Shown: one piece after another, positions 2,916-12,474 of the stretch
How the letters are laid out: each line of letters starts with the position of its first letter
How positions within the stretch are numbered: position 1 is the first letter of the stretch
From: Patescibacteria group bacterium
GTDB taxonomy: Bacteria; Patescibacteriota; Minisyncoccia; Phycocordibacterales; UBA1006
Assembly (NCBI GenBank): GCA_020428615.1
Contig: JAGQMO010000011.1
Coordinates: 1 to 29,765, forward strand
Length of the DNA stretch: 29,765 nucleotides
Direction of reading: 5' to 3'
Notes under the pieces: model-generated
What the model saw: only the letters and a program-made list of their open reading frames with translations
The model's database searches: none
What the model was told of the DNA's origin: nothing
Position numbers and translations under genes: made by a program

Positions 2916-5279
2916 ATGTTCCCCATGCGAAGAGTGCACAACAAGCGGAACAGGTGAATCGTATTTCAAGTATGAGCTTTTCAATATATCTTCCATGATA
3001 CGCTCAGCGTTTTTTGAGAACTCTTGTACGAAACTATCATTCACCTCGTAGATAATCTCGTCATGAATTTGAAGAATCAGCTTTGCGTCTAGTTTCTTTT
3101 TTTCCTCTTCAAGCCATGCGTTGATGTGTACCATAGCGAGCTTTGTAATATCGGCATTCGTTCCTTGAATTGGAGCATTCAATGCCATGCGTTCCGCCAT
3201 CGCACGAATGAAACCGAGTTTCGAGTTAATATTCTTGAACTGACGCTTTCTACCAAAGAGCGTTTTTGTGAATCCATGTTTGCGTGCATGTTCTTTTGTC
3301 GCTTCAAGGTACGCGGTTGCCTTTGGAAACTGAGTGAAAAATCCGTTGTAGAATTTCTCTGCTTCTGCTCTATCAGTTCCCATTTCACGTTTTACTGAAT
3401 TAATTCCCATGCCGTAGAGAATACCGAAGTTCACAATCTTTGCTTTTCGGCGCATTTCTCGATCAACATCTTTGACCGAAACTCCACCAATGAGAGCAGC
3501 AACTGCCGCGTGAATATCCTCACCATCTTGGAAAATCTTTATCAACGCTTCATCACCTGAGAGCATGGCCAAACACCTGAGCTCAATCTGCGAATAGTCG
3601 AGCGAAACGAGTTTGTGACCTTTTTCCGCAATAAATCCTTCGCGAATTTTTCGTCCGAGATCGGTTCGCGTTGGAATATTCTGCATGTTGGGATTGCGAG
3701 ACGAGAATCGTCCTGTTACGGTTCCGTTTTGCAGAAACTCTGCATGGAGGCGTCCGTCATTCCCCACCATTCCAGGAATATTGTCGATGTATGTTGAGAG
3801 GAGTTTGTCGAGTTCTCGGTACTCAATAATGAGCGGAATGATTTCGTGCTGATCTTCAAGTTTGTTCAGTGTCTTAATATCTGTCGAATACGCGCCTGTT
3901 TTTGATTTCTTAATTCCTTTAGTCGGTAAACCCATGTTTTCAAATAACACTACTGAAAGCTGTTTGGGTGATTTTATATTGAACTCCGATCCTGCGAGCG
4001 TGTGAATCTGCTGTCCGAGTTTATCGAGTTCACGGTGATAATTTTTCGAAAGCTGAGCAAAAAACGGTTGATCAATCATAATCCCATTTTTCTCCATATC
4101 AGCTGTTACGGAGATGAGCGGTTCTTCAATATGTGCAAATACCTGTGCATCCTCAGAATCCTCGTTTAACTGTTGTTCAATGATTTTTGTGGCATCATCC
4201 AATGATGTTGTTTTTGTATACAATAAGATATCTTCGAAGCTTGCGTCTGTTTTGTCTGAATCAATCAGCCACAACTGAATCGCTGTTCTCTTGATGTCCC
4301 CAACATGTACAGGTTCCGATTCTTTCTTTTCTCCTTCAGATGTCTGCACCAATCCAGAGAGACCAAGGGAAAGCTCCAGTCTCTGTGGGAGCGAGCGAAG
4401 TTCGTATTTTTCAAAAATATTCAACGCTTGAGGTGTATCAACAGCATCTTTCCACGAGTGTTCAGGCAATTCAAACACAATCGGCGCATCATGTCGAATG
4501 GTAGCAATCACCTTCGAGAACTCGGCCTCTTCTTTGCCTTCTCTCATCAAATTCACCATGCGTTTGGTCAATCCAATATCAAGGAGCGCCTGGTCGTTCT
4601 TATCAAGCGCAGTGTACATATTCTCAATTGTACCGAACGCCGCAATAGCAAGAGTTGCGGCTTTGTCTCCAATACCCTTGATACCGGGAATGTTATCGGA
4701 CGGATCACCACGGAGTGCCTTGTAGTCAATGATCGACAACGGCGGAAAACCAAATCGTTCAATAACGCTAGATTCATCATACGTAACCGTATCGTTCAAA
4801 CCTCGTTTGAGGGTGTAGACTTGTACTCGTTTTTTATCAACGAGCTGAAGCGTATCCATGTCCCCCGAGGCGATGAGTACTTGGAGTTTTTTATGGTCTT
4901 TTAGTTGAGTTGCAATAGTCCCCAAAATATCATCCGCCTCAAATCCAGGAGCATCATAGATAGGGATCGCAAACGCTTCACAAATATCTCGAGTAGCATC
5001 AAACTGCATAACGAGCGCTTCATCAGTTTCACTGCGACTTCCCTTGTAGTCTTCAAAAGCTTCGTGTCTAAACGTAGCGCCTGGTAAATCATAGCAAGCG
5101 ACAATGTAATCAGGTTGAAACTCATCAATAATTTTTAAGACCATGGTTGCAAAACCGTAAATAGCACCAGTTGGCCTGCCATCGCTCGTTGTAAAGTCAG
5201 GCATAGCGTGATAAGCGCGATGAATGATTGCATGTGCATCAAGCAAAACCAGAAGTTGTTTCTTGGAATCTCGATTCAT
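2898..5279 (-). CDS. polA: DNA polymerase I (793 aa), 5'-3' exonuclease plus polymerase, proofreading domain vestigial
   Basis: LLDAHAIIHRAYHA, EADD and GDPSDNIPGIKGIG (5' nuclease). TGRFSSRNPNMQNIP, DYSQIELR, K..NFGILYG and QIHDE (Pol A motifs). ATG 5279 follows TG-G-TATACT-N6. Confidence 0.97.
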   Translation of the reverse strand: MNRDSKKQLLVLLDAHAIIHRAYHAMPDFTTSDGRPTGAIYGFATMVLKIIDEFQPDYIVACYDLPGATFRHEAFEDYKGSRSETDEALVMQFDATRDICEAFAIPIYDAPGFEADDILGTIATQLKDHKKLQVLIASGDMDTLQLVDKKRVQVYTLKRGLNDTVTYDESSVIERFGFPPLSIIDYKALRGDPSDNIPGIKGIGDKAATLAIAAFGTIENMYTALDKNDQALLDIGLTKRMVNLMREGKEEAEFSKVIATIRHDAPIVFELPEHSWKDAVDTPQALNIFEKYELRSLPQRLELSLGLSGLVQTSEGEKKESEPVHVGDIKRTAIQLWLIDSDKTDASFEDILLYTKTTSLDDATKIIEQQLNEDSEDAQVFAHIEEPLISVTADMEKNGIMIDQPFFAQLSKNYHRELDKLGQQIHTLAGSEFNIKSPKQLSVVLFENMGLPTKGIKKSKTGAYSTDIKTLNKLEDQHEIIPLIIEYRELDKLLSTYIDNIPGMVGNDGRLHAEFLQNGTVTGRFSSRNPNMQNIPTRTDLGRKIREGFIAEKGHKLVSLDYSQIELRCLAMLSGDEALIKIFQDGEDIHAAVAALIGGVSVKDVDREMRRKAKIVNFGILYGMGINSVKREMGTDRAEAEKFYNGFFTQFPKATAYLEATKEHARKHGFTKTLFGRKRQFKNINSKLGFIRAMAERMALNAPIQGTNADITKLAMVHINAWLEEEKKKLDAKLILQIHDEIIYEVNDSFVQEFSKNAERIMEDILKSSYLKYDSPVPLVVHSSHGEHWGKLK

Positions 5280-9207: not shown

Positions 9208-9236
9208 ATATTAGCATATCATAATCATATTGTCAA
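9208..9236 (-). promoter_or_regulatory. Near-consensus sigma70 promoter for the surface protein
   Basis: TTGACA (9231-9236) - N17 - TAATAT (9208-9213), with extended TG. Confidence 0.75.
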
Positions 9237-10190: not shown

Positions 10191-10219
10191 AAAATATCAA
10201 CAAATCACGATATTGTCAA
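10191..10219 (-). promoter_or_regulatory. sigma70 promoter for paralogue A
   Basis: TTGACA (10214-10219) - N17 - TATTTT (10191-10196), with extended TG. Confidence 0.6.
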
Positions 10220-10291: not shown

Positions 10292-11302
10292 TTAAGATCT
10301 TTTCCTTTTGTATGCCTTGTTGACGGTGTTACTCATGGAGGTGAGTTGGGTTTGAAATGAATTAAAAGTATTCACCCTGTTACCCGTGCCATTTCCTCCG
10401 TTGAAATTTCCGGAGCCGTTAGGATTGAATCCTCCTCCGTTTCCAGATTCGTTTCCAGAATCATTCGGTTTAATAGGTTCATTAATCACAACTTCTGGGT
10501 TATCTCGATGTTTCTTAAAGAGATTAAATAAATTTATCTTACCATCTTCAAGAAGATCAAGTCCAATCACGGTCGCAACAACGGCTACTGGAATAATCCA
10601 ACCGTTTTTTCGCTTTACTTCCAACCTATCATTAAGGCAAACTGGATACTCTAATGCAAGAGTCGCAAAGGCATCTTCGGCTTCCTGTCTGGTTAATCCC
10701 CAACTTTCTTGATAGGGTAATCCATTCCTCAAACCTATTCGACGAGCTTTACGAGCAGTCGGCGTCCGTCCTATTTTTTCAAGAACTTCAATTCTAGCCC
10801 ACTCTGTAGCGGCAATCTCGCATGGCGTCATTGGTGGAGGAGTTTTTTGATTTGGTAATTCATACCTATCAGCAGAATCAGCAAGTAAAGGTAACGTAAC
10901 ATCTTCGGAAAGTTCCTTGGTTGCTTTTTTTGGCAACATACTCAAGACAAGAAGGATTACCCTCCTTTGTACATCACAATAGGTATCAACAATTTCGGAT
11001 ACGGAGATATCAGAATACGGATTATGCATTTTGTTTTGCATGGTATTACTCACAAAAACATCTCCTACATGAATATTTTGGTACTCAATTCTAATTTCCT
11101 TACCATCTCTTCCGTATGGCATAGTGTCACCAACAATGACTTTACTACGCATATCAAAACCGTTTTCAGGCTTCTTGATTTGGTAATTCATACCGTTTGC
11201 CATGGTTGTTGCTCTTTCTTTATCACCAGAAAGAACAATGGTGTTTTGGGCATATAACCCAAAGGTAACTAACAAACTAAAAATAAGGATTATTTTTTTC
11301 AT
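10292..11302 (-). CDS. Hypothetical exported protein, paralogue B (336 aa)
   Basis: Start moved to ATG 11302, giving signal peptide MKKIILIFSLLVTFGLYA-Q. Has a hydrophobic segment (WIIPVAVVATVIGL) and an Asn/Gly-rich tail. Confidence 0.75.
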   Translation of the reverse strand: MKKIILIFSLLVTFGLYAQNTIVLSGDKERATTMANGMNYQIKKPENGFDMRSKVIVGDTMPYGRDGKEIRIEYQNIHVGDVFVSNTMQNKMHNPYSDISVSEIVDTYCDVQRRVILLVLSMLPKKATKELSEDVTLPLLADSADRYELPNQKTPPPMTPCEIAATEWARIEVLEKIGRTPTARKARRIGLRNGLPYQESWGLTRQEAEDAFATLALEYPVCLNDRLEVKRKNGWIIPVAVVATVIGLDLLEDGKINLFNLFKKHRDNPEVVINEPIKPNDSGNESGNGGGFNPNGSGNFNGGNGTGNRVNTFNSFQTQLTSMSNTVNKAYKRKRS

Positions 11303-11312
11303 TTTCTTGGAA

Positions 11313-11397
11313 TTTGTGGAGGGAGAAACCTCCTGGTTTGACTTCTCTCTATACACCACACACGTGGTATCCAGAGAGAAGTCAAACCATTCACAAA
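11313..11397 (-). ncRNA. Structured 5' leader, candidate cis-regulatory RNA
   Basis: 17-bp perfect inverted repeat (11334-11350 / 11373-11389), an adjacent GGAGG/CCTCC hairpin (11318-11333) and an outer TTTGTG/CACAAA pairing, lying between the promoter and the ATG. Confidence 0.55.
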
Positions 11398-11461
11398 AAA
11401 TGAAAAATCGTCAAACCATATATTCTTTTTAATTATAAAAAGTACTGACTTCTTGTATTAT

Positions 11462-11490
11462 ATATTATCATATATAATACATTATGTCAA
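11462..11490 (-). promoter_or_regulatory. Near-consensus sigma70 promoter for paralogue B
   Basis: TTGACA (11485-11490) - N17 - TAATAT (11462-11467), with extended TG. Confidence 0.75.
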
Positions 11491-12446: not shown

Positions 12447-12474
12447 AATATACCAAAATATATAATATTGTCAA
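12447..12474 (-). promoter_or_regulatory. sigma70 promoter for the 281-aa lipoprotein
   Basis: TTGACA (12469-12474) - N16 - TATATT (12447-12452), with extended TG. The -35 sits inside the palindrome AATATTG-A-CAATATT. Confidence 0.6.

Follow-up and report, generated by a model that had tools for sequence, protein, structure and literature searches.

The stretch of DNA analyzed here, hereafter the window, spans 29,765 nt (positions 1 to 29,765 of the forward strand of contig JAGQMO010000011.1, assembly GCA_020428615.1) from a Patescibacteria group bacterium, and all positions follow its numbering. The genome assembly amounts to 606 kb in 84 contigs, is 92% complete, and has a GC content of 40%. 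On the minus strand lies gene B (10292..11302), the "paralogue B" of an earlier note on this DNA, which encodes a 336-aa protein with a signal peptide, a C-terminal hydrophobic segment, and no Pfam domain. Gene B is preceded by an untranslated leader of ~152 nt, running from its start codon to the predicted transcription start site (TSS) (11303 to ~11455, minus strand). The flanking gene on either side of this leader is without a Pfam match, and the next gene upstream encodes a PilB-like ATPase, the closest named relative of which comes from a Candidatus Paceibacteria MAG (75% identity). The same DNA is present in several wastewater and activated-sludge metagenomes. In four such runs the contigs carrying the locus are identical, which leaves no natural variants to compare and makes such a comparison uninformative.

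Protein B belongs to a small and fast-evolving family. It has no Pfam match, its Atlas structure model is of low confidence, a word-indexed protein search returned only the protein itself, and a profile search found 19 representatives of the family among 1.84 billion proteins. Where a locus contains two genes of this family, the leader is found on the first only, while the second has a short, unstructured leader; paralogue A, also in the window, has a short, unstructured leader.

The upstream gene extends to 11546 and has a hairpin terminator after it, beyond which lies a promoter (11462..11490, minus strand) with a -35 box TTGACA (11490-11485), a 17-nt spacer, and a TG-extended -10 box TAATAT (11467-11462), which matches the consensus at 10 of 12 positions in addition to the TG preceding the -10 box. 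The same layout, TTGACA-N16-18-TAnnnT, is found upstream of every homologous leader described below. From the promoter only, we infer a TSS at ~11455 and, with it, the presence in the transcript of the 5'-terminal element that we call arm 1.

A leader of ~150 nt with extensive structure is exceptional in this genome, since an SD-like motif is absent from ~88% of the long ORFs and a -10 box or -10-like hexamer ends 6-9 nt before the ATG in ~100 of 445 ORFs, the signature of leaderless mRNAs. Judging by these genome-wide sequence features, most genes appear to be translated from leaderless or unstructured mRNAs.

Architecture of the leader

The earlier note had described the leader as highly structured, which is borne out by folding. 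At -63.8 kcal/mol, its minimum free energy (MFE) lies far below the -31.3 +/- 3.7 kcal/mol of dinucleotide shuffles, a z-score of -8.7 (roughly -8 to -9), and none of 200 shuffles is as stable. The elements listed in that note, that is, a 17-bp perfect stem with a structured loop, a GGAGG/CCUCC hairpin, a UUUGUG/CACAAA closure ~10 nt before the AUG, and partial copies of both arms of the stem, are all present, on the minus strand, at the coordinates given below. The energies are nearest-neighbor predictions, in a model that does not cover a possible pseudoknot combining the arm 1:arm 2 and arm 2':arm 3 pairings introduced below.

The central hairpin, P2 (11334..11389, minus strand), is composed of arm 2 (TGGTTTGACTTCTCTCT, 11389-11373), arm 3 (AGAGAGAAGTCAAACCA, 11350-11334), and a tip hairpin. 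Arm 2 is the exact reverse complement of arm 3, with which it forms the perfect 17-bp stem, while the tip hairpin of 7 bp (AUACCAC/GUGGUGU, with a GUGU loop) pairs 11370-11364 with 11359-11353 in the predicted fold, which brings P2 to 24 pairs. A repeat search delineates the same element as two 26-nt arms (11334-11359 and 11364-11389) that are 88% complementary and separated by a 4-nt loop. Assemblers break contigs at this hairpin.

Directly 3' of P2 is a second hairpin, P3 (11318..11333, minus strand), in which GGAGG (11333-11329) and CCUCC (CCTCC in the DNA, 11322-11318) are separated by a 6-nt loop. In relatives (designated below by handles such as L027 or G012), this position is also taken by a small hairpin, whose sequence is unrelated to that of P3: its stem is 9 bp long in L027, for example, and CCAGA/UCUGG in L029 and L030. 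The translation initiation region (11297..11318, minus strand) consists of CACAAA (11318-11313), an A-rich spacer, the AUG (11302-11300), and the first codons of gene B, and there is no Shine-Dalgarno (SD) sequence at working distance from this AUG. It forms the 3' strand of an outer helix, the 5' strand of which, in MFE folds, is a segment that we call anti-start (UUUUCAUUUUUUGUG, 11392..11406, minus strand). The anti-start segment pairs in the MFE fold with CACAAA and with AGAAAAUGAAA around the start codon; the UUUGUG/CACAAA closure (11397-11392 with 11318-11313) ends 10 nt before the ATG.

The remainder of the leader, 5' of the anti-start segment, contains the partial copies of both arms. 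The first, arm 2' (AUGGUUUGAC, 11410..11419, minus strand; the ATGGTTTGAC copy at 11419-11410), repeats the beginning of arm 2 and offers the 3' half of arm 3 another partner. Its presence is confined to the closest subgroup of leaders, which comprises those of the window, L027, and L020, and the same subgroup is alone in having an AUG-GUU-stop mini-ORF, absent from the other leaders. A segment further upstream (CUUUUUAUAAUUAAAAAG, 11425..11442, minus strand) is predicted to form a small 5' hairpin in the MFE fold and to pair with the anti-start segment instead in an alternative fold. Finally, arm 1 (AGAAGUCA, 11446..11453, minus strand) lies at the 5' terminus of the predicted transcript. This element copies part of arm 3 (the copy AGAAGTCA at 11453-11446), is complementary over 8 bp to UGACUUCU within arm 2, and is part of a conserved 5' box whose consensus in relatives is about AGAGUCAAGUUCUUU. 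The motif TGGTTTGAC occurs six times in the 606-kb genome, three times within the leader (in 80 bp) and three times elsewhere.

P2 is followed by CAGGAGG, with no U-tract on the mRNA strand, and a scan of the minus strand reported no terminator at P2, whereas the genuine terminators in the cluster do carry U-tracts. An attenuator based on intrinsic termination is therefore not supported, and a terminator mechanism is unlikely.

Homologous leaders and covariation of the central hairpin

We found 15 further leaders with an identical order of elements, all in the same genus or in metagenomic relatives. They were collected from contigs encoding family proteins and from related genomes (L027, L020, L025, L028, L026, L029, L030, L021, G012, and contig C67, with which the near-identical copy of G015 is counted) and by means of a covariance model built from eleven leaders, which identified five more (G011, G005, G014, G013, and G004). 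Within the genus, 7 of 17 related genomes match this RNA model, each at the corresponding locus. There is no match in 37 genomes from the 15 other genera of the family, nor in 35 scanned PilB-like loci that are more distant (out of 80 from GTDB genomes, the rest being mostly non-CPR). Wherever the flanks are available, the orthologous PilB-like ATPase is encoded 1-3 kb upstream of the leader, and it is on the same strand in all five model-found genomes, where it is also preceded by a TTGACA-N17-TAnnnT promoter.

Copy number is low throughout. In the genome of the window, blastn found only the leader itself, that is, no second near-identical copy, and a second site was reported by the RNA model, which corresponds to the diverged copy on contig C67; the other genomes have at most one site each. 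Contig C67 has a near-identical counterpart in another species of the genus and was probably mis-binned, so that we count one leader per genome. There is no significant complementary sequence elsewhere in the genome that would represent a partner in trans. The 5' box was also considered as a general promoter-proximal motif, and this was rejected: its exact pattern has 78 matches in metagenomes, close to what chance would give (a rough estimate is about 16-140), only one of these 78 fits the RNA model, and, of 400 other genomes in the class, a single one contains the pattern. Four matches to the 5' box that are accompanied by long hairpins (L146, L171, L135, and L172) may be remote relatives.

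The leader is better conserved than its cargo. The genes downstream of the five model-found leaders begin with MKN or MKK and encode a signal peptide, and their proteins have no detectable relation to the protein B family. Moreover, the proteins of the window and L027 share 36% identity across just 125 aa, while the P2 arms of the two leaders differ at one base.

The earlier note had suggested collecting homologous leaders in order to look for covariation, and P2 does covary among those that we found. The alignments, generated using MAFFT, were built without structural input, and the statistics overstate independence, since all homologues come from one genus-level lineage and are phylogenetically close. 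With nine sequences, 92.6% of the cells are paired, 11 of 16 pairs show compensatory changes, and none of 500 shuffles reaches the observed value. With 16 sequences, the core helix of P2 is 90.7% paired and 12 of its 14 pairs are compensatory, a value again reached by none of 500 shuffles, and sliding this core by 1-3 columns lowers the paired fraction to 34-50%. RNAalifold independently recovers both P2 and the tip helix. Among orthologous leaders, the arms differ in sequence and in length while complementarity is kept, with stems of 12-25 bp that have covarying tip hairpins of their own. One pair of P2 illustrates this at the scale of single bases: the window has G:C, L027 has G:U, and L020 has A:U, a series that points to pairing being maintained at the RNA level rather than a DNA motif. 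On the strength of the fold's stability, the shared layout, and these alignments, the structure is real and under selection.

These results also bear on the possibility that the leader does nothing for the gene and arose by chance or as selfish DNA, whether as a MITE, an invertible segment, a REP-like palindrome, or a fortuitous inverted repeat. Mobile elements typically end in long perfect inverted repeats, and contigs are broken at the hairpin by assemblers. The element is nevertheless not multi-copy, as the MITE considered in the earlier note would have been: it occurs as one copy in the window and a diverged one on C67, in conserved synteny and with compensatory covariation. The four metagenome runs contain no alternative joints, and the promoter is outside the repeats, which led us to reject an invertible segment. 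A selfish or accidental origin is thus hardly credible.

A competing helix and exposure of the start site

Of the mutually exclusive pairings that were proposed in the earlier note, that of the AGAAGUCA copy with the 5' arm recurs in most homologues, with different sequences. In every subgroup, arm 2 is complementary to the nucleotides that directly follow the predicted TSS, with sequences that change from one subgroup to the next. The pairing of arm 1 with a segment of arm 2 extends over 8 bp in C67 (UAAGAGUC with GACUCUUA), 11 bp including one G:U in L026 (AAGUUAAGUUC with GAACUUAGCUU), 11 bp in L030 (AACCAGUUCCU with AGGAACUGGUU), and 10 bp in G014 (GAGUCAGUUC with GAACUGACUC). In G012, it reaches 14 perfect bp (UAGGAGUAAGUUCU with AGAACUUACUCCUA) and is better than the leader's own hairpin. 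When the nascent RNA is folded up to the end of arm 2, 14 of the 16 leaders have arm 2 paired with the 5' box in the MFE structure. Arm 1 of G013 is interrupted by a small hairpin, yet arm 2 pairs with the parts on both sides of it, so that a three-way junction results. Arm 1 pairs poorly with arm 2 in L020 and G004.

Compared with dinucleotide shuffles of the 5' segment, the arm 1:arm 2 duplex is significant in the window (p = 0.004) and reaches p <= 0.01 in 11 of the 16 leaders; Fisher's combined p is 4e-14, a value that overstates independence, as the sequences are related. The pairing is also register-specific, with 71% of the cells paired in the column test versus 32-50% when the columns are slid. 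Column covariation is marginal, 40 of 500 shuffles reaching the observed value, because both sides are fairly conserved. Arm 3 likewise has an alternative partner in the closest subgroup, where arm 2' covaries with it, G facing C in the window and A facing U in L027 and L020. This amounts to one compensatory change in three sequences and is in line with the role of alternative partner that the earlier note had given to the ATGGTTTGAC copy.

The outer helix was detected in relatives as well. Its 5' strand, located between arm 1 and arm 2, is paired with the nucleotides that immediately precede the AUG, as in UGAAAGGUUU with AAACCUUUCA, GUAGAUGUU with AACAUCUAC, UCGAAGUUUUA with AAAACUUCGA, or GUGAUGUUUU with AAAACAUCAC. 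This helix reaches significance in 11 of the 16 leaders, where it ends 0-6 nt from the AUG and its sequence differs from one leader to another. In the window itself, the outer helix is AU-rich, interrupted, and no better than shuffles (p = 0.58), which is the weakest point for this copy.

Taken at face value, the three TGGTTTGAC copies could instead be DNA operators, as the earlier note had offered as an alternative, bound by a transcription factor at arm 1, on the TSS, and at the inverted pair formed by arm 2 and arm 3, so as to repress the promoter. Arm 1 does overlap the predicted TSS, a classic position for a repressor, and three copies lie within 80 bp, against three in the rest of the genome. 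However, TGGTTTGAC is restricted to the closest subgroup, the orthologous leaders having other arm sequences, so that the motif is not conserved at orthologous promoters. Furthermore, the covarying tip hairpins, the tolerance of G:U pairs, the covarying outer helix, and the hairpin inserted in arm 1 fit pairing in RNA, and no regulator gene was seen among the leader's immediate neighbors. We therefore regard DNA operators as extremely unlikely.

In folding models, the two arrangements differ in how far the start site is exposed. The unpaired fraction of positions -18 to +3 of the window leader is 0.33 in the MFE fold and 0.86 when arm 1:arm 2 is enforced. Across 12 leaders, it is 0.71-1.0 with arm 1:arm 2 enforced, compared with 0.19-0.81 in the MFE fold, in which the start region is largely paired in most leaders but unevenly buried, the unpaired fraction rising to 0.81 in G012 and above 0.5 in three others. 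The two states are separated by 2 kcal/mol in G005 and by up to 22 kcal/mol elsewhere; in the window leader, the difference is ~16 kcal/mol in favor of the MFE (OFF) fold, which is too large for simple equilibrium switching. The outer helix, being short and AU-rich, is compatible with the melting that an RNA thermometer would require, while P2 is far too stable to melt.

Could the leader be static? P2 would then be an RNase III processing site or an mRNA stability element, and the similarity of arm 1 to arm 3 would be incidental; a cut in P2 would part the anti-start segment from the start region and unmask translation, or else the hairpin would set the half-life of the mRNA. The 17 perfect bp of P2, 24 pairs with the tip, provide the ~20 bp of near-perfect double-stranded RNA needed for RNase III, the rnc gene is present in the genome, and the OFF fold is strongly favored in the window leader (ddG of 16 kcal/mol). 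A static leader would leave unexplained, on the other hand, why arm 1:arm 2 complementarity is kept across diverged leaders, even across a hairpin insertion, and why arm 2' covaries with arm 3. We consider it unlikely, and note that processing by RNase III can coexist with a switch.

A metabolite riboswitch is another reading of the same helices. Arm 1:arm 2 would close an aptamer, and a ligand stabilizing this closing helix would block both P2 and the helix that sequesters the start. The topology is that of translational riboswitches, where one strand is common to a P1-like closing helix and the hairpin that competes with it, and an expression platform is suggested by the models together with the comparison of leaders, arm 1:arm 2 and arm 2:arm 3 being alternatives that differ in predicted start exposure. 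The region enclosed by arm 1:arm 2, in contrast, is 45-60 nt long, AU-rich, poorly conserved, and poorly aligned, and its predicted shape varies between leaders, so that no ligand pocket is evident and an aptamer for a metabolite is improbable. Nor is a ligand suggested by the downstream genes, whose products are variable secreted proteins and not enzymes or transporters. In keeping with the earlier note, which could not match it to a known family, the leader corresponds to none: when scanned against Rfam (release 15), the window has only a tRNA at the curated gathering thresholds. The best sub-threshold match over the leader is Anti-Q RNA (33.5 bits versus a threshold of 45), and miRNA-precursor models score far below their thresholds, all of these being chance matches to generic long hairpins. 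The likeness to a riboswitch or attenuator drawn in that note thus holds for the mutually exclusive helices and fails for the conserved aptamer and the U-tract, and a metabolite riboswitch seems to us very unlikely.

A candidate two-state leader and its likeness to known systems

Across the aligned leaders, the helices of both states can be seen to be conserved and to covary. That the RNA switches between them, and that translation is the output, we infer from the folding models. We consider it probable, with moderate confidence, that the leader exerts cis-acting, two-state translational control on the mRNA of a secreted or surface protein and is OFF by default. The shared anatomy would be, from 5' to 3', arm 1, anti-start segment, arm 2, arm 3, and start region. 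State A would form first during transcription, by pairing of arm 1 with arm 2. The anti-start segment would then be held inside a long 5' hairpin, leaving arm 3 and the start region free (ON). Once transcribed, arm 3 could displace arm 1 and bring about the more stable state B, which is the MFE fold and the predicted thermodynamic end point, with arm 2:arm 3 forming P2, the anti-start segment pairing with the start region, and the 5' end of the transcript single-stranded. Because the anti-start segment pairs before or across the start codon, the initiation region would be buried to a varying degree in state B. In an organism that makes almost no use of SD sequences, initiation probably needs an open, A-rich start region, and state B would therefore be OFF.

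Expression would depend on a factor that holds state A or reopens state B. Candidate triggers are a protein or RNA recognizing the conserved 5' box, temperature or folding kinetics, and a cut of P2 by RNase III, which is encoded in the genome (rnc, C61:9780-10172, 136.6 bits). Neither a cold-shock-domain protein nor CsrA was found in this 92%-complete genome. More tentatively, the leader may be a lineage-specific riboregulator whose 5' box is read by temperature or by a factor in trans (protein, small RNA, or small molecule) that flips it from OFF to ON. If so, the flip would time the production of a rapidly diversifying surface protein beside the type IV pilus motor, possibly on contact with a host cell.

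In its general kind the element is familiar, but as a cis-regulatory RNA family it is new and narrowly distributed. After a limited keyword check of the literature, we know of no described cis-regulatory RNA that is specific to CPR/Patescibacteria. These bacteria are presumed to live attached to other microbes. Type IV pili drive this attachment in Saccharibacteria that have been cultivated (PMC9894109, PMC11623550). Amid apparently leaderless or unstructured mRNAs, one gene slot beside the pilus ATPase has a long, covarying leader with two predicted states, which makes the control of a variable surface protein in a minimal cell accessible to testing. An RNA of ~150 nt is small enough to be studied in vitro without cultivation, while restriction to one genus-level lineage limits the immediate reach of the finding.

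Several well-characterized leaders offer points of comparison. In translational riboswitch platforms such as that of E. coli thiM (TPP), competition between a closing helix at the 5' end and a downstream hairpin decides whether the start is sequestered. Our leader is similar in that a closing helix formed by the 5' end shares a strand with the downstream hairpin and the initiation region would be gated, and differs in having no conserved ligand core, Rfam match, or SD, and an OFF fold far more stable than is usual where a ligand tunes the platform. In trp and pheST attenuators (1:2, 2:3, and 3:4 pairings), mutually exclusive helices likewise overlap in the order of transcription. The window leader, in contrast, has no U-tract after P2 and no evident conserved leader peptide, and its output appears to be access to the start rather than termination.

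RNase III-dependent leaders include those of E. coli adhE and phage lambda N. Here the likeness is in a long perfect duplex in the 5' UTR coupled to an occluded start, in a genome that encodes RNase III. Those systems lack a conserved competing 5' helix, however, and cleavage of the window leader is putative. Messenger RNAs of the hok/sok type are known for 5'-end pairing and metastable folding. As in these, the extreme 5' end pairs with a distant segment and sequential folding would decide translatability; unlike in these, there is no antisense RNA or toxin gene, and the partner segment is inside the leader rather than at the 3' end.

The 5' UTR of E. coli cspA mRNA, finally, is a thermosensor of ~160 nt with a conserved "cold box" at its extreme 5' end. 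Our leader has no sequence similarity to it, and no cold-shock-domain protein was found in the genome, but it is reminiscent of cspA in its unusual length, its conserved 5'-terminal box, and the predicted succession of an early fold that exposes the start and an equilibrium fold that hides it.

Promoters and leaderless transcripts

Between the gene for the PilB-like ATPase and the large adhesin-like gene lie four genes, each with a promoter and a terminator of its own. The promoters, all on the minus strand (window 9208-9236, 10191-10219, 11462-11490 and 12447-12474), read TTGACA-N16/17-TAnnnT with a TG-extended -10, and strict TTGACA-N17-TAnnnT sites number only 23 across the 606-kb assembly to which the window belongs (G000). 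In the whole of this assembly, about 100 of the 445 ORFs of at least 150 aa have a -10-like hexamer, TAYAHT, ending 6-9 nt before the ATG, and among 326 ORFs of at least 200 aa, counted separately, an SD-like motif of any kind lies upstream of only about 12%. Leaderless mRNAs appear to dominate this genome.

In four related loci (approximately L027:3610-3630, L020:1530-1550, L029:3375-3400 and L030:3775-3800), the -35 box of the second family gene is preceded, at a distance of about 25 nt, by a conserved motif, approximately GTGAATTnTGTGGAAAAC. It may be a transcription-factor site, and it is not present upstream of paralogue A in the window.

Inverted repeat and mini-ORF in the leader

Logan contigs from four independent wastewater/sludge runs, identical in sequence to the window, end at the hairpin of the gene B leader (window 11347-11357) and at the repeated copy of its arm (11421-11433). 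The inverted repeat evidently troubles assemblers.

The same leader contains two copies of AUGGUUUGA (11419-11411 and 11390-11382), each of which spells a mini-ORF, AUG-GUU-stop. A G-to-A change in L027 and L020, the loci with the leaders closest to that of the window, turns UGA into UAA, and the mini-ORF is thus preserved in all six copies of these three leaders; it is missing from all other leaders.

Cargo genes, copies and possible relatives of the leader

Behind the orthologous leaders of four genomes of the same genus (L114 in G005, L113 in G011, L117 in G013 and L118 in G004) lie genes for secreted proteins whose lengths are at least 272-385 aa, the length in G004 being a lower bound since the ORF extends past the end of the locus. 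When compared with the family profile of protein B, the secreted product of gene B, these proteins score at most 5 bits, that is, with no detectable similarity. The position downstream of the leader seems to be occupied by cargo that is either rapidly replaced or hyper-diverged.

A diverged copy of the leader is borne by a 2-kb contig of G000, C67 (L013). Over the leader and that part of its flanks which was compared, this contig is nearly identical to C38 of G015 (L009), from another species of the genus, and it is probably mis-binned, rather than a second locus.

In four metagenome contigs (L146, L171, L135 and L172), a promoter is followed by a AGTYAAGTTCTTT box and then by a 23-27-bp hairpin. 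The gene after the hairpin begins MKN or MKI in L146 and L171, while the next ATG in L135 opens MERIHKLFSY. The four contigs, which the covariance model built from eleven homologous leaders missed at E <= 0.01, may be distantly related to the leader family.

Hairpin preceding pheS

Elsewhere in G000, pheS is preceded, at about 4150-4200 on the minus strand of contig C81 (L122), by a hairpin resembling a terminator, AAAACCTTACGA ... TCGTAAGGTTTT with a T-run after it. This hairpin has no Rfam match even at E <= 1. Its 3' arm has an exact 12-nt copy 58 nt upstream, and the 1:2/2:3 layout is attenuator-like.
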